This document shows positions 8,671 to 33,230 of a DNA stretch of 49,337 nucleotides, piece by piece. Both the position numbers and the translations under genes were made by a program. Every line of letters begins with the position of its first letter. Position 1 is the stretch's first letter. This DNA is from Escherichia phage phiD2-2. Under the pieces are notes generated by a model. That model searched no databases. It worked only from the letters and a program-made list of their open reading frames with translations, and was not told the DNA's origin. The stretch lies in the sequence record OR861627.1; one strand, given 5' to 3'.

Positions 8671-8684
8671 CGCTGATAGGTGAA

Positions 8685-12400: not shown

Positions 12401-13035
12401 AATTTGAATGTGTGCTTAGTAACGGATCTGGATTTAAGTACGGCAAAATCTACGAAGGCGCTCGCGTCAATTGCAACAGCTTCGTTATCACGGATGAGCG
12501 CGGTAGAAATGTTAACGTTGTCCGGCGTCACGAATACCAGGAAATTTTCCTGCCGTACGGCAATAGTTCAAAATACATCTTCCATCGAATCGTTGATGGT
12601 GTTAAATTTAAAGACGTAATCGAAGCAATCAACCAACTTCATAATAAAGAGGTAAAATTTATGAAATTCGAATGTATCAGCGATAACACCAAAAAATTTA
12701 CTGTTGGCAAAATTTACGATGTTCCCTCTGAGCACGCTAAGCACACGGCTGTAATTACCGACGACACGGGCCGCCACCGCATTGCAACCGTAACGCACAA
12801 CGGTGAAGGTCTTCGCTGGAATAGCGGCGGCACTAAGTTCGCAACGTTCGGCAAGAAGCGCAAGCGCACTTTCTGCGTCAAGGGCAATGTTGCGGCGAAC
12901 AAGACCCACAACGACAAGGCGTCACAAGTTGACCGCAAGCCAGCATTGAAGTTTGAAGAGAAAGCGGATTTATCCGGCCTGGCTGTTGCGCTTGTTCTCC
13001 TGGTAGCTTCGATTTCGCTGATGTTCATCATGTAA
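12397..13035 (+). CDS. membrane-anchored protein with tandem duplicated domain (212 aa)
   Basis: Two copies of an MKFEC...GKIY...ITD..GR module starting at residues 1 and 89; C-terminal TM helix LAVALVLLVASISLMFIM; internal ATG at about 12661 has its own AAAGAGG RBS. Confidence 0.6.
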   Translation: MKFECVLSNGSGFKYGKIYEGARVNCNSFVITDERGRNVNVVRRHEYQEIFLPYGNSSKYIFHRIVDGVKFKDVIEAINQLHNKEVKFMKFECISDNTKKFTVGKIYDVPSEHAKHTAVITDDTGRHRIATVTHNGEGLRWNSGGTKFATFGKKRKRTFCVKGNVAANKTHNDKASQVDRKPALKFEEKADLSGLAVALVLLVASISLMFIM

Positions 13036-13040
13036 TTTTA

Positions 13041-13076
13041 ACGGGGAATCGGATCTGAACGGTTCCCCTTTCTTTT
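13041..13076 (+). terminator. rho-independent terminator
   Basis: Stem GGGGAA/TTCCCC then TTTCTTTT. Confidence 0.6.
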
Positions 13077-13088
13077 GGAGAAAACACT

Positions 13089-13199
13089 ATGCCAGACTTT
13101 TCTAACTGGAATAACGAGCCGCCATCATTTCAGGAGTTGCTATTTTGCCTCCTGGTCCTGACATTATCTCTTAAGGGTGTTTTATGGCTACTATCATAA
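13089..13199 (+). CDS. possible small hydrophobic peptide (about 36 aa)
   Basis: Hand-translated ORF after a terminator, GGAG RBS; overlaps start of next ORF. Confidence 0.25.
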   Translation: MPDFSNWNNEPPSFQELLFCLLVLTLSLKGVLWLLS

Positions 13200-13402
13200 C
13201 CGCAGAAGATGCGGCGCGTGACGCAGTGGAAGGAATGCGCCCAAATACCTCCAGAATCGCCCACTACTACAAGTTTGAGGTGTCGGCAGTGCAATTGGTC
13301 CACGAAATTTTAAGGCTCCCACAAGTCGATTCAGCGCGAGTAGTGACGTGCTTAAAAAATTATTTTTGCATCACTATTAAAACGAATAGCACGAATTGCT
13401 AA
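13184..13402 (+). CDS. hypothetical protein (72 aa)
   Basis: Track ORF; stop is the TAA inside the 13386 palindrome. Confidence 0.45.
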   Translation: MATIITAEDAARDAVEGMRPNTSRIAHYYKFEVSAVQLVHEILRLPQVDSARVVTCLKNYFCITIKTNSTNC

Positions 13403-13469
13403 AACTTGCTCAAGGGTATTTGATAGAATGCCCTTCGTTGAGTTAAGCAACCAATCAGAGGAATAAATC
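13386..13469 (+). promoter_or_regulatory. gene-boundary cassette
   Basis: ATAGCACGAATTGCTAAAAC, hairpin AGGGTA/TGCCCT enclosing TGaTAGAAT, CCAATCAGAGGAAT. Confidence 0.6.
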
Positions 13470-14081
13470 ATGGATAAAATTACCATTTGGGGCCAGACTG
13501 TCAACCTGTTTCTAGGTACTCGCCGTGTGGCAATCTTTGACTTCGACGGAACGCTGAGTGACGGCTCAAAACGTCTTCACCTGCTACCGACAAAAGATTT
13601 GCACTTGACTGAAAGCTGGTCTGAGTTTAACCGCGCGGCAATATTTGATAACCCAATCCAAAGCACGATCGACGTAATGAACTCCATGTATGCCGCTGGT
13701 TATCATGTGATAATTTTAACCGGGAGAAGCGATGAGGTGCGTTACGCATCTGAGTTATGGCTTAAGCATCACGGCGCAAGATATGATTACTTAGTCATGA
13801 GGCCGCATACCGACAACCGCAAAGACACGGTAATGAAAGAAGAGGCGGTGCGCGCGATCGGCGTTGATAACATTCTGGCAGCTTGGGATGACTCACCGCA
13901 AATTATTCCATTATTCCGATCGCTTGGAATAACCACGTATGCCGTAGTTGACTATGGCGATAACGTTCACGATCATTTAAAATCTCACGGGGTGGATGAG
14001 GTTTGCAATCATGAACCATCTGAGCCGCTACCGCCATTTGGCGATAAAATATGCATTAAGTGCAAGGAGTTATTGAAGTGA
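13470..14081 (+). CDS. HAD-superfamily phosphatase, resembles the 3'-phosphatase domain of T4 polynucleotide kinase/phosphatase
   Basis: Motif I FDFDGTL, motif II-like ILTGRS, downstream NRKDTVMKEE and AWDDSPQII...VVDYGD; resemblance to T4 Pnkp C-domain is from memory. Confidence 0.6.
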   Translation: MDKITIWGQTVNLFLGTRRVAIFDFDGTLSDGSKRLHLLPTKDLHLTESWSEFNRAAIFDNPIQSTIDVMNSMYAAGYHVIILTGRSDEVRYASELWLKHHGARYDYLVMRPHTDNRKDTVMKEEAVRAIGVDNILAAWDDSPQIIPLFRSLGITTYAVVDYGDNVHDHLKSHGVDEVCNHEPSEPLPPFGDKICIKCKELLK

Positions 14082-14191
14082 ACCTGTACGAATTTATTGC
14101 AGCACATCCTGTATTGACGGTTATCATCCTGTTAATCATCAATCACACTATCATCAATGTGGCAAAATTATTTTTAGGGAGATACTAACAT
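14078..14191 (+). CDS. possible small membrane peptide (about 37 aa)
   Basis: Hand-translated GTG-start ORF between phosphatase and kinase (VNLYEFIAAHPVLTVIILLIINHTIINVAKLFLGRY). Confidence 0.25.
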
Positions 14192-14762
14192 GAAAACAGC
14201 TATCATTTTAAACGGCGCACCTGGAGCGGGAAAAGACACTATCGGATGCATCCTTGCTGACACTTACGATCACGTAGCCTTGCGCAGCTTCAAAGCGCCA
14301 ATGTTTGAGATTGCCAGGGCAATCCTGGGTGAAGCTAACTACGAGTATTTCATGTTCTTGTATGAGGACCGTCGATATAAAGAAGAGCCAGCATCAATCC
14401 TGAACGGTAAAAGCCCGCGCCAGTTTATGATCTGGATTAGCGAGGAAGTCATCAAGCCGCAGTTCGGAAATCGCTTCTTCGGTATGCGAGCGGAAAGCAA
14501 GGTGAAAGAGTCGCACTCCCTTTCGGTATTTACTGATGGTGGATTCAAAGACGAAATCTTGCAGATGATTGAAGGTGATATCCAGGTCAAGCTATGTCGA
14601 ATACATCGCAACGGTTGCAGCTTTGATAACGACAGCCGCGACTATATCTATCTTGACGACATGATCGGGGTTAACGGTTATCAGGAATGTGACTTCTTTT
14701 CTGTCGAAGGTCATCCAGAAATTACCGCTCAGCACATAGCCGCCACGTTCATCAATAAATAG
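14190..14762 (+). CDS. deoxynucleoside monophosphate kinase-like P-loop kinase (T4 gp1-like)
   Basis: P-loop GAPGAGKDT, FKAPMFEIARAILG and LNGKSP motifs resemble T4 gene 1 dNMP kinase from memory; GGGAGA RBS. Confidence 0.55.
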   Translation: MKTAIILNGAPGAGKDTIGCILADTYDHVALRSFKAPMFEIARAILGEANYEYFMFLYEDRRYKEEPASILNGKSPRQFMIWISEEVIKPQFGNRFFGMRAESKVKESHSLSVFTDGGFKDEILQMIEGDIQVKLCRIHRNGCSFDNDSRDYIYLDDMIGVNGYQECDFFSVEGHPEITAQHIAATFINK

Positions 14763-14834
14763 CACGAATTGCTAAAACGTCGATGGGGTGATTTGATATA
14801 GTTACCTCATCGACAACGAAGAGAGAAAATCTAA
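14760..14834 (+). promoter_or_regulatory. gene-boundary cassette
   Basis: TAGCACGAATTGCTAAAAC, hairpin enclosing TGaTATAGT, CATCGACAACGAAGAGAG. Confidence 0.6.
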
Positions 14835-15044
14835 ATGACGGTATCAACTGATAAGTTTTTCACTTGCACTAAAACTTCTGAAGTATTCGAACTGGTTCAT
14901 ACTGATAATGGTGATTTCATGCATGACGGTTGCGACGTTTTCATTGAAGTGAAAGAAAGCGACTATGACGACGGAGTTTATTACAGCCCGGCAGTTAACA
15001 CGCAGTTTTTTACCCCGATCGAGGAAGATGGAGAAGAGGCATGA
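14835..15044 (+). CDS. hypothetical protein (69 aa)
   Basis: Track ORF with cassette upstream. Confidence 0.5.
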   Translation: MTVSTDKFFTCTKTSEVFELVHTDNGDFMHDGCDVFIEVKESDYDDGVYYSPAVNTQFFTPIEEDGEEA

Positions 15045-15400
15045 TTACGATTAACCTGTCAGAGAAGCAAGCTCGTGAAATCCTGGACACGATCGGCGAC
15101 CAGTTACACATCAAGGGCGCTACCGCCGAACTTCTTAACCAGATCGAAAGGCAGCTTACCCCAGCATCAACGAATCAAGCTGAGTTCGCAGCATGGAAGA
15201 GTGAACGCATCTTGCCAAATATCATCAAGGCATGGAAGCGCAAGCATAAAAAAGAAATCAACGTTGAGGATTTGTTTACCGACGAATTAAGCCCTTCAAA
15301 GGTTGCTCAATATCAGTTGCGATACATGGAATCAGTTTGCAATCAGGTTTTAGGTGTTAATTTTCATTTTGGAGAGGTAAATAATGTTCGGATTAAGTGA
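15041..15400 (+). CDS. hypothetical protein (119 aa)
   Basis: Track ORF, start overlaps upstream stop. Confidence 0.55.
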   Translation: MITINLSEKQAREILDTIGDQLHIKGATAELLNQIERQLTPASTNQAEFAAWKSERILPNIIKAWKRKHKKEINVEDLFTDELSPSKVAQYQLRYMESVCNQVLGVNFHFGEVNNVRIK

Positions 15401-15614
15401 AGCGGAATGGAACGTGGTAAAGCGCGCGGCGAAGGAATTAAATAAATTCGTCAGTGGCATGAAGAAAGAAGATCGGAAAAACGACAAGATCATGATTGAC
15501 GTTATTTCTACTCACCACAAAAAGGTCGAATTACTCATCGATCGCTACAAATTTGTCTGGACTGCCGGGTATATTGCCGGGCGCGTAGGTAACAAAGAAG
15601 GGGATTACGAATAA
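15384..15614 (+). CDS. hypothetical protein (76 aa)
   Basis: Track ORF with GGAGAGG RBS. Confidence 0.5.
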   Translation: MFGLSEAEWNVVKRAAKELNKFVSGMKKEDRKNDKIMIDVISTHHKKVELLIDRYKFVWTAGYIAGRVGNKEGDYE

Positions 15615-15817
15615 TGGCTAATTTACCGAAGAAAGGAGATCAGGTTCGATGCATCACTTCACGTAATGGCGATGCTTTCTCAGCTGGGTGCTTGTATGAC
15701 GTTGAAAAAGTCAGTAAAGCAAAGAGGCTCGTATATGTGTACGGCGACGATGGAAACCTGCATGAGATTAATTACCCGCAGGATATGACTAAGGGTCAAT
15801 TTGAAATTAATGATTGA
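15614..15817 (+). CDS. hypothetical protein (67 aa)
   Basis: Track ORF with ATAATGG start overlap. Confidence 0.5.
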   Translation: MANLPKKGDQVRCITSRNGDAFSAGCLYDVEKVSKAKRLVYVYGDDGNLHEINYPQDMTKGQFEIND

Positions 15818-15843
15818 CCTACGTCCCTGAGCGGTGATAGTAT
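15814..15843 (+). promoter_or_regulatory. sigma70-type promoter with extended -10
   Basis: TTGACC, 18-bp spacer, TGaTAGTAT; drives a roughly 130-nt structured leader. Confidence 0.5.
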
Positions 15844-15978
15844 TAATCCCGTAGACAAACTAGGCGCAATGAAGCGCAACGCGTGAGACGATTCTCACAC
15901 TTCCAGCTAACAAGCTCGGTTGCATAGTGGTTAAGCAACGCCGCAGACCCGTAAGCGGCAACAATTCAAGAGGATTGC

Positions 15979-16143
15979 ATGATGCAAAACACCAAAGACG
16001 AATCAGTAAAAATTGAAATTAAAGTAACTCGCAACGGTGAAACCACTCGTTATAAAAAACGATTAAATCCGGGAGAGGCTGTTATTGGTCGAATTGCTGG
16101 CGTTATGATTAAGGCGCAGGAAGATGAAGCGATTCAAGGTTAA
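15979..16143 (+). CDS. hypothetical small protein (54 aa)
   Basis: Hand-translated; AAGAGGA 6 nt upstream of ATG; follows a structured leader. Confidence 0.4.
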   Translation: MMQNTKDESVKIEIKVTRNGETTRYKKRLNPGEAVIGRIAGVMIKAQEDEAIQG

Positions 16144-16309
16144 ATTAATTATTCGAAAGATGGGGATGTTTTGCCAGTCGTGCAAACAATCTTTCGAAAC
16201 AGAATTATCTGCAACCAGTCAGGCAGAAGCCATCACGAAAGCAAAAAAACTTTCCGGCGCTAACCTTGACACTCACAAAATAAATATTGAATTAATCAAG
16301 GAGATTTAA
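16124..16309 (+). CDS. hypothetical small Cys-containing protein (CQSCKQ); start uncertain
   Basis: Track ORF overlapping the previous gene; poor RBS at listed start, internal starts possible. Confidence 0.3.
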   Translation: MKRFKVKLIIRKMGMFCQSCKQSFETELSATSQAEAITKAKKLSGANLDTHKINIELIKEI

Positions 16310-16310
16310 C

Positions 16311-16538
16311 ATGACAATTTTTTTATTGATTATCGCTGGTGTCATTATTTTTGGTGCTGGTTTGTTTGCTGGCTTCGCACTTGTGGCGGCAGCAATTGCG
16401 ATGGACGCGAAGGATAAAACTGGTGTATGGCTGACCTACTCACCTAAGAAGGACCAATGGGAGATGACTGGCGACCTTGCTCACTGCTACTCTAAAGCTC
16501 AGACCCACCCTAAAGGAATTAAGCGACTATTGTCGTGA
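16311..16538 (+). CDS. small membrane protein (75 aa)
   Basis: AAGGAG RBS; N-terminal TM helix IFLLIIAGVIIFGAGLFAGFALVAAAIAM; followed by a terminator. Confidence 0.5.
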   Translation: MTIFLLIIAGVIIFGAGLFAGFALVAAAIAMDAKDKTGVWLTYSPKKDQWEMTGDLAHCYSKAQTHPKGIKRLLS

Positions 16539-16546
16539 TAAACACT

Positions 16547-16571
16547 AACCCGCTTCGGCGGGTTTTTTTAT
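16547..16571 (+). terminator. rho-independent terminator ahead of the packaging genes
   Basis: Stem CCCGC/GCGGG with TTCG loop then T7. Confidence 0.7.
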
Positions 16572-16622
16572 GCCTGCAATATGGTAAAATAGCACTAAAT
16601 GTTAAACAAAGAGGATGGATTT
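16572..16622 (+). promoter_or_regulatory. extended -10 (TGgTAAAAT) plus palindrome in the TerS leader
   Basis: After terminator: TGGTAAAAT then TAGCACTAAATGTTAAAC then AAGAGGA RBS. Confidence 0.45.
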
Positions 16623-17147
16623 ATGAGTGAACATAAAAACGCTCCCGTTGTTCAGGGAGGTAATTTCAAAGAGCTATACAAGAAAAAGTTCGGCACTGTT
16701 CTTGCTAAGAATCGGGCAATGACGCCTGAGCAACTATTCGATCTGTCAGTTAAGTATTTCGAATGGGCTGAAGACAATGCGATCAAGGCTTCTGAGTCTG
16801 CCAGCTTTCAGGGTGGCGTTTATGAATCGCTAGTTCATAAGCCGCGCGTCTTCACCTGGACCGGATACCGACTATTCATCGGTGCAAGCGAGGCCGCAAT
16901 CATTAAGTGGAAGCGAGAGGAAGAATACAGTGAGGTTATGGAGTTTGTGGAATCGGTAATCAACGAGCAAAAATTCCAGCTTGCCGCCAACGGTGTTATT
17001 AACGCCTCATTTATCGGTAAGGATCTCGGAATCGACAAGCCAGCCTCAATCAATATCGAAAACTCGTCAGCTTCCGCATCGACCGCTGTCGCCACTACTG
17101 AGGACGCAATGAAAGAGGCTGTAAACAGTATTCTTGACATGCTTTAA
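16623..17147 (+). CDS. terminase small subunit (putative)
   Basis: About 174 aa gene directly upstream of the large terminase; internal ATG with AAGAGGA RBS preferred over track start 16599. Call by position and size only. Confidence 0.5.
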   Translation: MSEHKNAPVVQGGNFKELYKKKFGTVLAKNRAMTPEQLFDLSVKYFEWAEDNAIKASESASFQGGVYESLVHKPRVFTWTGYRLFIGASEAAIIKWKREEEYSEVMEFVESVINEQKFQLAANGVINASFIGKDLGIDKPASINIENSSASASTAVATTEDAMKEAVNSILDML

Positions 17148-17185
17148 CGTTACGGGCGCGCAAGCGCCCATACAGGAGAATTGAT

Positions 17186-18754
17186 ATGATTCAATGGGAA
17201 GAACTCGACGCAACTCAGAAGTTGGCGATCAAAAAAATGAGCGAGGCCAATTTCGAAAAAATGATTCGGATCTGGTTTCAGCTTATGCAGGCTCAGCAGT
17301 TCCAGCCTAACTGGCATCACCTTTACCTATGTCACGAAGTGGAGGAAATTATTGCAGGCCGACGCGGTAACACTATCTTTAACGTCACGCCAGGCTCCGG
17401 TAAAACTGAGGTGTTCTCAATTCACCTTCCGGTGTACGCAATGCTCAAGTGTAAAAAGGTGAGAAACCTTAACGTGTCGTTTGCCGACAGCTTAGTTAAG
17501 CGTAACAGTAAGCGTGTCCGTGAGATTATCAGCAGCAACGAATTTCAAGAGCTATGGCCTTGCAAGTTCGGTACATCGAAAGACGAGGAGATGCAGGTTC
17601 TTAATGAAGACGGAAAGGTTTGGTTTGAGCTAATCTCCGCAGCGGCTGGTGGTCGTATTACTGGTTCGCGTGGTGGGTACATGATGCCAGGATTCTCAGG
17701 TATGGTAATGCTCGACGATATCGACAAGCCTGATGATATGTTCTCAAAGGTTAAGCGTGAGCGTACGCACATGCTATTGAAAAACACCATTCGATCCCGT
17801 CGTATGCATAACGAAACGCCAATTATCGCAATTCAGCAGCGACTACATGCTCAGGATTCAACCTGGTTCATGATGAATGGCGGGATGGGTATTGAGTTTG
17901 ACCAAATCTCAATCCCGGCGCTGGTGACGGAAGAATACGGAAAGACACTTCCTGATTGGTTGCAGCCTTACTTTGAGCGTGATGTTTTATCGTCTGAGTA
18001 TGTAGAATTGGATGGCGTTAAGCATTACTCTTTTTGGCCCAGCAAGGAAAGCGTTCACGACCTGTTAGCCTTGCGAGAAGCTGATCAGTACACCTTTGAC
18101 TCTCAGTATCAGCAGAAGCCGATCGCGCTTGGTGGCTCCGTGTTTAACTCGGAGTGGTGGACCTATTACGGCAGCAGCCTTGACGCTGACGAGCCAGATC
18201 CTGGTAAATATGATTACCGTTTTATCACAGCAGATACCGCTCAGAAGACGGGTGAGCTAAACGACTACACGGTCTTTTGTTTATGGGGTAAGAAAAACGA
18301 TAAGGTTTACTTTATCGACGGCATTCGCGGCAAGTGGGAAGCGACTGATATGGAGAAACAATTTACCGCCTTTGTGAATCAGGCATGGAGGCACAATAAA
18401 TCAATGGGCGTGCTTCGCAAAATCTACGTGGAAGATAAAGCGAGCGGAACGGGCTTGATTCAGAACTTAAGGAAAAAGACCCCGATCTCAATTACACCAT
18501 TGCAACGTAACAAAGATAAAGTTACCCGAGCGATGGATGCGCAGCCAGTTATTAAGGCCGGGCGTGTAGTTCTTCCAGAAGAGCACCCTATGCTTGCGGA
18601 AATCATCGCAGAGCATAGCGCTTTCACATATGATGACACACATCCGCATGATGACATTGTCGATAACTTCATGGATGCGGCGAACATTGAATTGCTGACT
18701 ATTGACGATCCTATTGAGCGAATGAAGCGACTTGCCGGGATGGTTAAGCGGTAA
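17186..18754 (+). CDS. terminase large subunit
   Basis: 522 aa; Walker A NVTPGSGKTEV near N-terminus, acidic nuclease-type C-terminal half; GGAG RBS. Confidence 0.85.
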   Translation: MIQWEELDATQKLAIKKMSEANFEKMIRIWFQLMQAQQFQPNWHHLYLCHEVEEIIAGRRGNTIFNVTPGSGKTEVFSIHLPVYAMLKCKKVRNLNVSFADSLVKRNSKRVREIISSNEFQELWPCKFGTSKDEEMQVLNEDGKVWFELISAAAGGRITGSRGGYMMPGFSGMVMLDDIDKPDDMFSKVKRERTHMLLKNTIRSRRMHNETPIIAIQQRLHAQDSTWFMMNGGMGIEFDQISIPALVTEEYGKTLPDWLQPYFERDVLSSEYVELDGVKHYSFWPSKESVHDLLALREADQYTFDSQYQQKPIALGGSVFNSEWWTYYGSSLDADEPDPGKYDYRFITADTAQKTGELNDYTVFCLWGKKNDKVYFIDGIRGKWEATDMEKQFTAFVNQAWRHNKSMGVLRKIYVEDKASGTGLIQNLRKKTPISITPLQRNKDKVTRAMDAQPVIKAGRVVLPEEHPMLAEIIAEHSAFTYDDTHPHDDIVDNFMDAANIELLTIDDPIERMKRLAGMVKR

Positions 18755-18772
18755 TAAATGAGATATAATCAA

Positions 18773-18797
18773 GGCTGTCAATTGACGGCCTTTTTTA
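18773..18797 (+). terminator. rho-independent terminator between TerL and portal
   Basis: Stem GGCTGTCAA/TTGACGGCC then T6. Confidence 0.55.
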
Positions 18798-18808
18798 TTG
18801 GAGGAAAC

Positions 18809-20092
18809 ATGAAAATTGTTAAACATGATGGATATAACGATATCTTTAACGGCGGCGCGGACGGTTCACCAAAGCCATTTTTTATGTCAGACGCATCATA
18901 TCACGTAGGATCTTTCTATAACGATAACGCAACAGCGAAGCGAATTGTAGATGTGATCCCGGAAGAAATGGTGACGGCTGGATTTAAAATTTCAGGCGTT
19001 AAGGATGAAAAAGAGTTCAAATCTCTGTGGGATAGTTACAAAATTGATCCTAGCTTGGTTGATGCTCTTTGCTGGGCGCGCTTATACGGTGGGGCGGCTA
19101 TTGTAGCAATCATTAATGACAACAGAATGCTAACCAGTCCAGTTAAGCCTGGGGCTAAACTTGAAGGTGTGCGTGTTTACGATAGGTTCGCAATTACAAT
19201 CGAAAAAAGAGTAACCAATGCGCGATCGCCTCGCTATGGTGAGCCTGAGATCTATAAGGTGTCACCTGGTGACAATATTCAACCTTACTTAATCCACCAC
19301 ACAAGAATTTTCATTGCTGATGGTGAGAGAGTTACCCCTCAGATGAGGAAGCAGAATCAGGGGTGGGGTGCTTCAGTTTTGAATAAGTCACTGATTGATG
19401 CAATCTGCGACTACGACTATTGCGAATCACTTGCGACTCAGATCCTTCGGCGTAAGCAACAGGCGGTATGGAAGGTCAAAGGTCTTGCCGAAATGTGCGA
19501 TGATGACGATGCTCAGTATGCGGCGCGTCTGCGACTTGCTCAGGTTGATGATAACTCCGGCGTAGGCCGCGCGATCGGTATCGATGCTGAGACGGAAGAA
19601 TACGATGTTCTAAACTCTGATATCAGCGGAGTACCTGAGTTCTTATCAAGCAAGATGGATCGTATTGTTTCCCTTTCCGGGATTCATGAGATTATCATCA
19701 AAAATAAGAACGTAGGCGGCGTATCAGCGAGCCAAAACACGGCGCTTGAGACTTTCTATAAGTTGGTAGATCGTAAGCGTGAGGAAGATTACAGGCCGCT
19801 TCTTGAGTTCTTGCTGCCGTTCATTGTTGACGAGCAAGAGTGGTCGATCGAGTTCGAGCCTTTATCTGTTCCGAGCAAGAAAGAGGAATCAGAGATCACG
19901 AAGAATAACGTTGAGTCGGTTACGAAAGCTATCACTGAGCAAATCATCGATCTGGAAGAGGCTCGCGATACGTTGCGCTCTATCGCCCCTGAGTTTAAGC
20001 TAAAGGACGGTAATAACATCAACATTCGCGAACCGGAAGAGCCAACCGAACCGGAGCCGGGATTAGGGGAGAAGTTAGAAGATGAAAATTAA
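18809..20092 (+). CDS. portal protein
   Basis: About 427 aa gene after TerL, acidic C-terminus; track ORF trimmed to ATG (MKIVKHDG) with GGAGGAAA RBS. Confidence 0.7.
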   Translation: MKIVKHDGYNDIFNGGADGSPKPFFMSDASYHVGSFYNDNATAKRIVDVIPEEMVTAGFKISGVKDEKEFKSLWDSYKIDPSLVDALCWARLYGGAAIVAIINDNRMLTSPVKPGAKLEGVRVYDRFAITIEKRVTNARSPRYGEPEIYKVSPGDNIQPYLIHHTRIFIADGERVTPQMRKQNQGWGASVLNKSLIDAICDYDYCESLATQILRRKQQAVWKVKGLAEMCDDDDAQYAARLRLAQVDDNSGVGRAIGIDAETEEYDVLNSDISGVPEFLSSKMDRIVSLSGIHEIIIKNKNVGGVSASQNTALETFYKLVDRKREEDYRPLLEFLLPFIVDEQEWSIEFEPLSVPSKKEESEITKNNVESVTKAITEQIIDLEEARDTLRSIAPEFKLKDGNNINIREPEEPTEPEPGLGEKLEDEN

Positions 20093-23276: not shown

Positions 23277-23296
23277 CATAAAAACACTTTGACGCT

Positions 23297-23313
23297 TTAA
23301 CAAAAAGTGCTAT
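23297..23313. repeat. boundary palindrome copy adjacent to a terminator
   Basis: TTTAACAAAAAGTGCTAT. Confidence 0.5.
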
Positions 23314-23318
23314 TATTG

Positions 23319-27056: not shown

Positions 27057-27096
27057 TTTTAACAAAAAGTGCTATCAACCAATCAGGAGAAACATC
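27057..27096 (+). promoter_or_regulatory. palindrome plus conserved leader upstream of the G chaperone
   Basis: TTTTAACAAAAAGTGCTAT then CAACCAATCAGGAGAAACATC then ATG. Confidence 0.45.
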
Positions 27097-31010: not shown

Positions 31011-31037
31011 AAAAGCCCGCCTTGCGCGGGTTTTTTT
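31011..31037 (+). terminator. rho-independent terminator (repeated cassette, copy 1)
   Basis: CCCGC-CTTGC-GCGGG then T7; same stem as 33196-33224. Confidence 0.7.
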
Positions 31038-31040
31038 GTA

Positions 31041-31050
31041 GCTGTAGAAT
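31041..31050 (+). promoter_or_regulatory. extended -10 promoter element (TGTAGAAT) after repeated terminator
   Basis: TG-n-TAGAAT about 30 nt upstream of the gpL-like start. Confidence 0.4.
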
Positions 31051-33188: not shown

Positions 33189-33195
33189 AATTAAC

Positions 33196-33224
33196 CCGCC
33201 TTGCGCGGGTTTTTTTTCGCCTGT
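33196..33224 (+). terminator. rho-independent terminator (repeated cassette, copy 2)
   Basis: CCCGC-CTTGC-GCGGG then T8. Confidence 0.7.
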
Positions 33225-33230
33225 ATAATG
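33221..33230 (+). promoter_or_regulatory. extended -10 promoter element (TGTATAAT) after repeated terminator
   Basis: TG-n-TATAAT about 35 nt upstream of the gpJ-like start. Confidence 0.45.

Follow-up and report, generated by a model that had tools for sequence, protein, structure and literature searches.

Results

A predicted promoter and a non-coding leader lie upstream of terS in phiD2-2

We examined a short non-coding leader located upstream of terS in Escherichia phage phiD2-2 (sequence record OR861627.1). The window analyzed is the whole stretch of 49,337 nucleotides (nt), which is a complete T1-like phage genome with 100% identity to Escherichia phage FCWL1 (approximately 49.3 kb). 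The leader region is about 93% identical to that of coliphage T1, and occupies a 161-nt gap between the homologue of T1 orf58 (15614–15817) and the homologue of T1 orf57 (15979–16143), the latter an open reading frame (ORF) of 54 amino acids. The order of features on the + strand is the orf58 homologue, the leader, three small ORFs, an intrinsic terminator, terS and terL; coordinates are collected in Table 1. Comparison with relatives indicates that the leader is a family-wide non-coding RNA module, kept by essentially all T1-like phages.

A preliminary description of the locus had proposed a promoter (TTGACC-18-TGaTAGTAT), a leader with at least four stable stems and no terminator-like U-run, and a 54-amino acid ORF with a good ribosome-binding site. 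The promoter was recovered at the positions proposed, with hexamers that are conserved in relatives, and is predicted to be a conserved sigma-70 promoter of the host type with an extended -10 element. The ORF and its Shine-Dalgarno (SD) sequence were likewise present, and no run of four or more T occurs between them and the promoter. Among 55 distinct relatives the -10 element follows the pattern TAnnnT and is often TG-extended; the spacer is 17 nt in 46 of these, as compared with 18 nt in phiD2-2. A 14-nt motif (the 14-mer) starts 5–6 nt past the -10 element in 47 of the 55, and the predicted transcription start is 15850 ± 1. The sequence between the -10 element and the 14-mer varies, so that conservation starts at the predicted start site. 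A promoter consensus scan of positions 13000–19000 returned 11 promoter-like sites, as compared to 10.5 ± 3.3 in shuffled sequences, a number that alone is not beyond chance. Within the spacer, the motif CTGAnnGG is retained in relatives while the remaining positions vary; such a motif is unusual inside a spacer and may represent the site of a regulator. The 2024 re-annotation of phage TLS lists only three sigma-70 promoters, none of them at the position of the leader (PMC11447400).

Compensatory changes in the leader across Drexlerviridae

Syntenic regions of relatives were obtained from annotated phage records, from viral contigs scanned by pattern, and from 72 metagenome loci found by alignment to terS. 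The annotated records represent Tunavirus, Sertoctavirus, Badaguanvirus, Guelphvirus, another Braunvirinae phage, Lindendrivevirus, Webervirus, Tlsvirus, Warwickvirus, Hanrivervirus and Kyungwonvirus. Every lineage with sufficient upstream sequence contained a gap with the same start, located 0.5–0.9 kb 5′ of terS. The first 52 nt of the leader from 32 sequences were aligned with MAFFT (alignment A3), and this alignment was used to build a covariance model (R1).

Hairpins 1 and 2 are paired in 91.3% of the cells of A3, as compared to 62.1% when the columns were shuffled and 24–48% when the pairing partners were slid. The covariation score was 0.717 against 0.199, a value reached by none of 500 shuffles, and eight of the nine pairs change on both sides. 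When the analysis was performed on the 55 distinct rows matched by R1, 89.2% of cells were paired, as compared to 60.1%, and the covariation score was 0.708 against 0.192. Note that in Webervirus the 5′ strand of hairpin 2, and in Tunavirinae that of hairpin 5, is placed out of register by both MAFFT and the models, so the counts from the 55 rows and the model-based counts for hairpin 5 understate the pairing. The alignment contains 14 G-U cells and 4 C-A cells, and whole clades have fixed G-U pairs (GCCC/GGGU, CGGCG/UGUCG and GCGGC/GCCGU). A C-A mismatch is the mark that pairing on the opposite strand would leave, so the excess of G-U favors the + strand as the one acting as RNA. Within Tunavirus (17 distinct sequences), variation affects 3 of 48 paired and 13 of 81 unpaired positions. 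The invariant unpaired set consists of the 5′ 14-mer, the AACG linker, the loop of hairpin 2, UCGG and, in the last hairpin, the loop CCGUAA. These data make it very probable that the leader is a selected RNA structure. They also bear out the proposal in the preliminary description of a structured 5′ untranslated region (UTR) or small RNA, since promoter, predicted 5′ end and hairpins are conserved family-wide with compensatory changes; loss of the structure in relatives had been named there as a refutation, and the covariation across related phages shows a structure that is kept.

The conserved core consists of a sigma-70 promoter, an invariant single-stranded 14-mer that begins at approximately +1, and two hairpins, of which 52 nt were modeled. 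The 14-mer conforms to the family motif C-G-U-n-n-A-C-A-n-A-A-G-A-G, occurs once in the phiD2-2 genome, and stays unpaired in most of 33 lineages when each is folded by itself. When 33 diverse cores were folded separately, the same two hairpins were obtained from differing stem sequences. Across the family, hairpin 1 has 4–6 base pairs (bp) and a loop of freely variable sequence; hairpin 2 has 5–6 bp and the loop consensus RCGnnn, and within Tunavirinae its stem GUGAG/CUCAC is swapped for GCAUC/GAUGC. We also considered a pseudoknot between the CCGUAA loop and either the 14-mer or UCGG. At most three pairs could form, all of them invariant, so this arrangement is not one that covariation can test, and it was set aside.

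Distribution of the leader

In the phiD2-2 genome, R1 identified a single site at 15850–15901 with a score of 57 bits, the runner-up scoring 8 bits. In Drexlerviridae, R1 found one copy per genome in 80 of 92 sources, in every case on the terS strand and upstream of terS. Four of the misses were inspected; two proved to be a diverged variant and two were cut contigs. The phages carrying the leader have Escherichia, Shigella, Klebsiella, Salmonella, Citrobacter and Cronobacter as hosts. The leader is more widely kept than the small genes adjoining it, the orf57 and orf58 homologues being absent from some lineages. A second covariance model (R2), built for hairpin 5, gave one match per genome in 36 sources. 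That both modules are single-copy is as expected of a site tied to one operon.

The Rfam scan that the preliminary description had suggested as a check matched no family: there was no match at the gathering thresholds in the whole phiD2-2 genome, none at E ≤ 10 on positions 15845–15985, and only true tRNAs in 15 relatives. Our literature search found no transcript map and no leader RNA for T1 or Drexlerviridae. We conclude that the leader defines a new RNA family, whose general kind, that of phage leaders and small RNAs, is a familiar one.

Hairpins and ends of the 3′ part of the leader

The 3′ part of the leader differs among lineages; in Tunavirus, hairpins 4 and 5 extend the universal core. 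RNAalifold predicted hairpins 1, 2 and 5 on eight Tunavirinae leaders. Hairpin 5 was followed by direct parsing, and all five pairs are formed in 19 of 19 distinct complete sequences, which carry nine versions of the stem, including ones with G-U pairs. Its loop is 8–10 nt long (10 nt in phiD2-2) and always terminates in CGUAA, apart from one sequence with CGUAC. The evidence for hairpin 4 comes from a small sample of about five distinct sequences, including few diverged Tunavirinae. Its stem UUGC/GCAA is replaced by UUGG/CCAA in SRT8, by GGGC/GCCC in IME347 and L025, and by GUGC/GCAC in LF82-10, and the loop AUAGUGG is kept despite these changes. A possible hairpin 3 found no support: it is absent from the RNAalifold prediction and broken in the close relative L020 (AGAT), and SRT8, IME347 and LF82-10 have unrelated sequence in its place. 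The consensus structure leaves positions 15960–15981 unpaired; pairing of the SD sequence appears in the minimum free energy fold of the single sequence and is not conserved.

The 3′ ends of the leaders fall into several types. Tunavirinae, Tlsvirus and a large metagenomic clade have a 5-bp hairpin with the loop A(n)CCGUAA, after which come AAC-n-A-UUCA and the SD sequence. In leaders of the Hanrivervirus and Warwickvirus type, a strongly covarying 7–9-bp hairpin, whose large loop contains CCGUAAGAC, precedes a U-run and the SD sequence; these loops are 18–22 nt long, and the hairpins resemble the hairpin-U-run-SD modules found between many late genes. Webervirus has the core only, and in some of its members hairpin 2 (GCCCC-GCUUU-GGGGC) is followed by UUUUAUU. 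No U-run occurs in the leader of phiD2-2 or of any Tunavirus or Tlsvirus. In all lineages without a tRNA the last hairpin lies 8–10 nt ahead of the first SD sequence (8 nt in phiD2-2).

In three separate lineages, tRNA genes occupy the space between the last hairpin of the leader and the first SD sequence, 9–13 nt past the hairpin. The inserted genes are Ser-GCU (LF82-10-like phages), Arg-UCU (Braunvirinae), and Arg-CCU plus Val (phiEB49), at 2551–2638 of L002, 1233–1320 of L025, 2024–2101 and 2108–2206 of L026, and 1265–1418 of L086. The junction between hairpin and SD sequence is thus a hot spot for tRNA insertion. Phage EC3a carries a second tRNA-like sequence of approximately 99 nt that is unannotated and missed by ARAGORN and that scores 41 bits in Rfam. 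A BLAST match of the leader to a feature labeled tRNA-Ser was discounted, as it reflects a leader adjoining a real tRNA with an overlap of only 9 nt.

One relative departed from the conserved structure. In Shigella phage vB_SsoS_008 (L005; MK335533), the leader at 1736–1870 has hairpins 2 and 5 broken and the region is 82% identical to phiD2-2; a terminator scan showed none ahead of terS in this phage. This is either poor sequence or a natural leader mutant.

Table 1. Positions of the promoter, leader and operon features in the phiD2-2 genome.
Feature	Position	Strand	Conservation or remark
-35 hexamer TTGACC	15814–15819	+	TTGACN in 51 of 55 distinct relatives
Spacer motif CTGAGCGG	15827–15834	+	Family consensus CTGAnnGG
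Extended -10 TG-A-TAGTAT	15835–15843	+	TG 15835–15836, TAGTAT 15838–15843; 9 of 12 consensus matches
Single-stranded 5′ 14-mer CGUAGACAAACUAG	15850–15863	+	Family consensus CGUnnACAnAAGAG, from alignments of relatives
Hairpin 1 GCGC-AAUGAA-GCGC	15864–15877	+	4 of 4 pairs change on both sides; 97.7% of cells paired
Linker AACGC	15878–15882	+	AA invariant, CG nearly invariant in A3
Hairpin 2 GUGAGA-CGAU-UCUCAC	15883–15898	+	4 of 5 modeled pairs change on both sides
Possible hairpin 3 AGCU-AACA-AGCU	15905–15916	+	Unsupported by relatives
UCGG, then hairpin 4 (G)UUGC-AUAGUGGUUAA-GCAA(C)	15916–15939 (stem 15919–15939)	+	Compensatory changes
Hairpin 5 GCCGC-AGACCCGUAA-GCGGC	15940–15959	+	CCGUAA conserved on 3′ side of loop
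3′ flank AACAAUUCA, SD AAGAGG (15968–15973), ATG (15979)	15960–15981	+	Conserved
Three small ORFs, homologues of T1 orf57, orf56 and orf55	15979–16538	+	PHROGs of unknown function
Strong intrinsic terminator	16547–16571	+	Annotated in T1; in all but one distinct relative
terS promoter GCCTGCAATA-TGG-TAAAAT	16572–16590	+	Context, outside the leader element

Coding potential and neighboring genes

Several coding interpretations of the locus were considered and dropped. A mini-ORF in the loop of hairpin 1 (ATG-AAG-CGC-AAC-GCG-TGA), a candidate leader peptide, is not conserved, T1 having AACTAA at this place. Two minus-strand ORFs of 31 and 34 amino acids are interrupted in relatives by indels of 1–2 nt; given these indels, the leader preserves no coding frame. 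The upstream ORF (15614–15817; 67 amino acids) was considered as a NusG-KOW-like protein, for which sequence searches of Pfam and PDB gave no support. This ORF ends in a TGA stop codon (15815–15817) contained in the leader promoter's -35 hexamer. Between a putative early promoter at approximately 14757 and the leader there is no terminator, so read-through transcripts would cover the leader too. Downstream, the orf56 homologue (16124–16309, + strand; 61 amino acids) follows the leader in nearly all lineages and contains a GMxCxxC motif; it has a weak match to the heavy-metal-associated (HMA) domain that falls below the Pfam cut-off (E = 0.002), and a PDB match to the N-terminal domain of a Cu-ATPase (E = 1.5e-5).

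Terminators and other promoter classes

The strong terminator lies 480–900 nt past the leader start in relatives. A near-consensus extended -10 promoter, GCCTGyAAT-N-TGnTATAAT, was found right after the T-run of this terminator in 21 of 21 representative lineages. A terminator followed by a conserved promoter makes the leader unit a closed mini-operon and gives the late genes their own promoter; the promoter ahead of terS probably serves the packaging and late genes. Modules of this type, in which a terminator is followed by GCCTG...TGnTAnAAT, are found at 16547–16590, 31016–31050 and 33193–33225. The late region contains 33 terminator-like sites, as compared to 18.5 ± 4.4 in shuffled sequences, and intrinsic terminators are likewise numerous in the late region of the T1 annotation. 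At 18771, 22461, 24334, 24670 and 27730 (+ strand), a late terminator is followed 3–10 nt on by an SD sequence and ATG; as this leaves no room for a promoter, expression of the downstream gene must depend on read-through.

A 21-nt repeat, AAATAGCACnnnTTGnTAAA, is present in 26 copies in phiD2-2 as compared to 0.8 expected, for example at 8683, 9423, 10444, 14757, 42302 and 46353 on the + strand and at 1794, 6091 and 7734 on the − strand. The TTGnTA of the repeat lies 16–18 nt 5′ of a -10 element resembling TGnTATAnT, which is often flanked by an inverted repeat and then by ACCyCATCGAAAC. The repeats look like marks of about 20 early promoters, each consisting of an UP-like element plus a -35; the role of the repeat was posed as a question in the TLS paper (PMC11447400). 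Two reverse copies (23296–23315 and 27058–27077, − strand) are intergenic, opposed to the late genes and beside hairpin terminators, and may be promoters of antisense or short RNAs. The leader promoter falls outside both the early-repeat class and the terS class.

Discussion

A cis-acting RNA platform as the proposed function

We tentatively propose that the leader is a cis-regulatory RNA platform bound by a factor acting in trans. In phiD2-2, it would form the 129-nt 5′ UTR of a self-contained operon made up of leader, three small ORFs and strong terminator. The freely changing stems hold a fixed set of invariant unpaired nucleotides, and these may be points of contact with a partner acting in trans, which could be a phage protein that is conserved or a host component common to Enterobacteriaceae. 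Binding of the partner would set the fate of the transcript in cis; it could affect elongation or termination a short way downstream, the processing or stability of the RNA, or the translation of the first ORF.

Four observations weigh against this proposal. The 136-nt leader folds at -37.1 kcal/mol with z = -1.05, and 32 of 200 shuffled sequences fold as well or better, which is ordinary stability; the fold of the minus strand has z = -1.42. The four stems of the preliminary description are all present, with hairpins 1, 2 and 5 covarying strongly and hairpin 4 showing compensatory changes; stability is not what sets them apart. Secondly, no conserved pairing masks the SD sequence of the first ORF, a result that also leaves the thermosensor suggested in the preliminary description without support. 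Thirdly, where a tRNA directly follows the leader, RNase P would free the leader from the mRNA, and such release speaks against a purely post-transcriptional role in cis, through translation or stability, and favors a co-transcriptional role or one in trans. Finally, approximately 30 of 74 or so distinct leaders end in a hairpin plus a U-run, in the manner of a small RNA.

A possible trans-acting small RNA

The last two observations favor a second possibility, a close rival that we consider somewhat doubtful: that the leader is released as a trans-acting small RNA whose 14-mer serves as a seed for a conserved target in the host or the phage. Many lineages would release it through the hairpin and U-run, and those with a tRNA through RNase P; in phiD2-2, RNase E could possibly do so at the AAUUCA flank. 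Hfq-dependent small RNAs of the RybB or OmrA/B type have 5′-terminal seeds. The leader resembles them in its strong and conserved promoter of its own, its invariant unpaired 5′ end followed by hairpins, and, in part of the family, a T-run straight after the last hairpin; in the three lineages with tRNAs it is conserved despite a tRNA separating it from the ORFs. In contrast to such RNAs, the Tunavirus leader has no terminator and runs directly into the mRNA, and the U-run is missing from the same Tunavirus and Tlsvirus leaders noted above. Where U-run hairpins of the Hanrivervirus/Warwickvirus type do occur, their likeness to the modules between late genes counts against a dedicated small-RNA end, and the phage genome contains no site complementary to the 14-mer within three mismatches.

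By-product RNAs of lambdoid late promoters can serve as small RNAs, as for lambda 6S RNA and StxS from PR′ (PMC7547250). The leader is like these in having a constitutive-looking promoter and a short structured untranslated RNA, with an end formed, in some lineages, by a hairpin and U-run immediately ahead of the genes. It differs in that the phiD2-2 leader lacks a terminator, that neither a Q-like protein nor a sigma-dependent pause element is recognizable, and that the late genes are separately promoted. Another comparison is with the stable RNAs C and D (species 1 and 2) of phage T4, which are structured, co-transcribed with the tRNA cluster, and presumably freed by tRNA processing. T1 differs in having no tRNA, and the leader is always at the 5′ end of its transcript.

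Possible antitermination and other nascent-RNA signals

The modules of terminator and SD sequence in the late region made a signal like lambda nut or HK022 put attractive, and such a signal was initially favored. The leader, alone or with a phage protein, would on this hypothesis direct processive antitermination past the terminator ahead of terS and the late terminators. It stands directly behind the last -35-bearing promoter ahead of the late genes and is followed by the strong terminator and by a late region rich in terminators, several without promoter room before the SD sequence and ATG. The conserved TGnTATAAT promoter found before terS in every lineage examined makes terS self-sufficient, and late-operon antitermination was downgraded on this account; we now regard it as unlikely.

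The structural comparisons point the same way. Like lambda nut, the leader is a promoter-proximal nascent RNA with a conserved linear element, a short 4–6-bp hairpin, small genes and downstream terminators. Unlike nut, its transcribed + strand lacks boxA (CGCUCUUA; CGCUCUU(U)A), reading instead CGUAGACAAACUAG, with the family consensus CGUnnACAnAAGAG; it begins at +1 and occurs once per genome; and the operon downstream is self-promoted. The boxB hairpin of nut has a 5-bp stem and a GNRNA pentaloop, whereas the loops in phiD2-2 are AAUGAA and CGAU (or ACGAUU), and GCGGA, a hairpin-2 loop that fits GNRNA, is confined to certain other lineages. When all ORFs of at least 35 amino acids were scanned for an arginine-rich N-like protein, arginine-rich windows were found mostly in short unannotated ORFs, none of which stood out, such proteins being hard to recognize. 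The put RNA of HK022, an antiterminator that needs no phage protein, binds the zinc-binding domain of the β′ subunit of RNA polymerase. It shares with the leader two adjoining stem-loops near the 5′ end, a strong promoter, and conserved unpaired nucleotides able to contact the host machine. The put RNA is approximately 73 nt long and is built of two long irregular stems with bulges and a base triple (PMC9378689), in contrast to the two short and perfect 4–6-bp hairpins of the leader, which stand behind a 14-nt single-stranded 5′ end and show no sequence similarity to put.

It seems to us similarly improbable that the core represents a new class of nascent-RNA signal that has no relation to nut or put and acts on the transcribing host RNA polymerase, with or without the help of a conserved phage protein. 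We would give as little weight to the corollary that this signal alters pausing or termination and so lets transcripts pass the terminator ahead of terS and the late modules of terminator and SD sequence. Two further types of element were compared. An attenuator or riboswitch finds no match in phiD2-2, whose leader has no terminator and on inspection no conserved alternative pairing. The ops element recognized by RfaH is GGCGGTAGnnTG on the non-template strand; the Tunavirus leader shares only GTAG with it, and other lineages have CGTTTACA or CGTGAACA. The architecture of the leader fails the defining tests for nut, put, attenuator and thermometer, and fits a terminator-ended small RNA only partly.

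A DNA-level element or a tRNA remnant as unlikely alternatives

A role at the level of DNA or single-stranded DNA is very unlikely; the hairpins would then be DNA inverted repeats, serving as an operator, as a signal for replication or priming, or as a site for packaging. The run of inverted repeats does adjoin the packaging genes, the spacer carries CTGAnnGG, and G-T pairs are tolerated in single-stranded DNA. Against this, the half-sites vary freely in sequence with pairing kept, which rules against a protein operator; clades fix G-U pairs (as in GCCC/GGGU and CGGCG/UGUCG) and not duplex palindromes; conservation starts at the predicted start of the transcript; and the authors of the TLS study place TLS pac, by similarity to the P22 pac sequence, away from the leader (PMC11447400), T1-type terS being related to P22 terS.

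That hairpins 4 and 5 are a decaying tRNA gene at an insertion hot spot, without function of their own, is suggested by a D-arm-like hairpin 4 (loop AUAGUGGUUAA), an anticodon-arm-like hairpin 5 with a loop ending in CGUAA, and the gain and loss of real tRNA genes at the same junction, and is scarcely credible given that ARAGORN finds no tRNA, that the Rfam tRNA model is empty at E ≤ 10 on 141 nt, that the loop of hairpin 5 has 8–10 and not 7 nt with neither T-arm nor acceptor stem present, that the compensatory changes in both stems indicate ongoing selection, and that LF82-10 carries the hairpins beside a true tRNA.

Significance for T1-like phages

Coliphage T1 is counted among the seven classical T phages, and to our knowledge almost nothing has been established about its gene regulation. 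The leader provides a precise handle on T1-like control between early and late genes, with a 52-nt core and defined invariant nucleotides, and its alignment directly yields designs for compensatory mutations. Further possible uses are as an RNA part for transplantation and, in metagenomes, as a marker of Drexlerviridae. Should the leader prove to act on RNA polymerase, or to be a small RNA directed at the host, it would represent a new class of regulatory RNA in a virulent phage.

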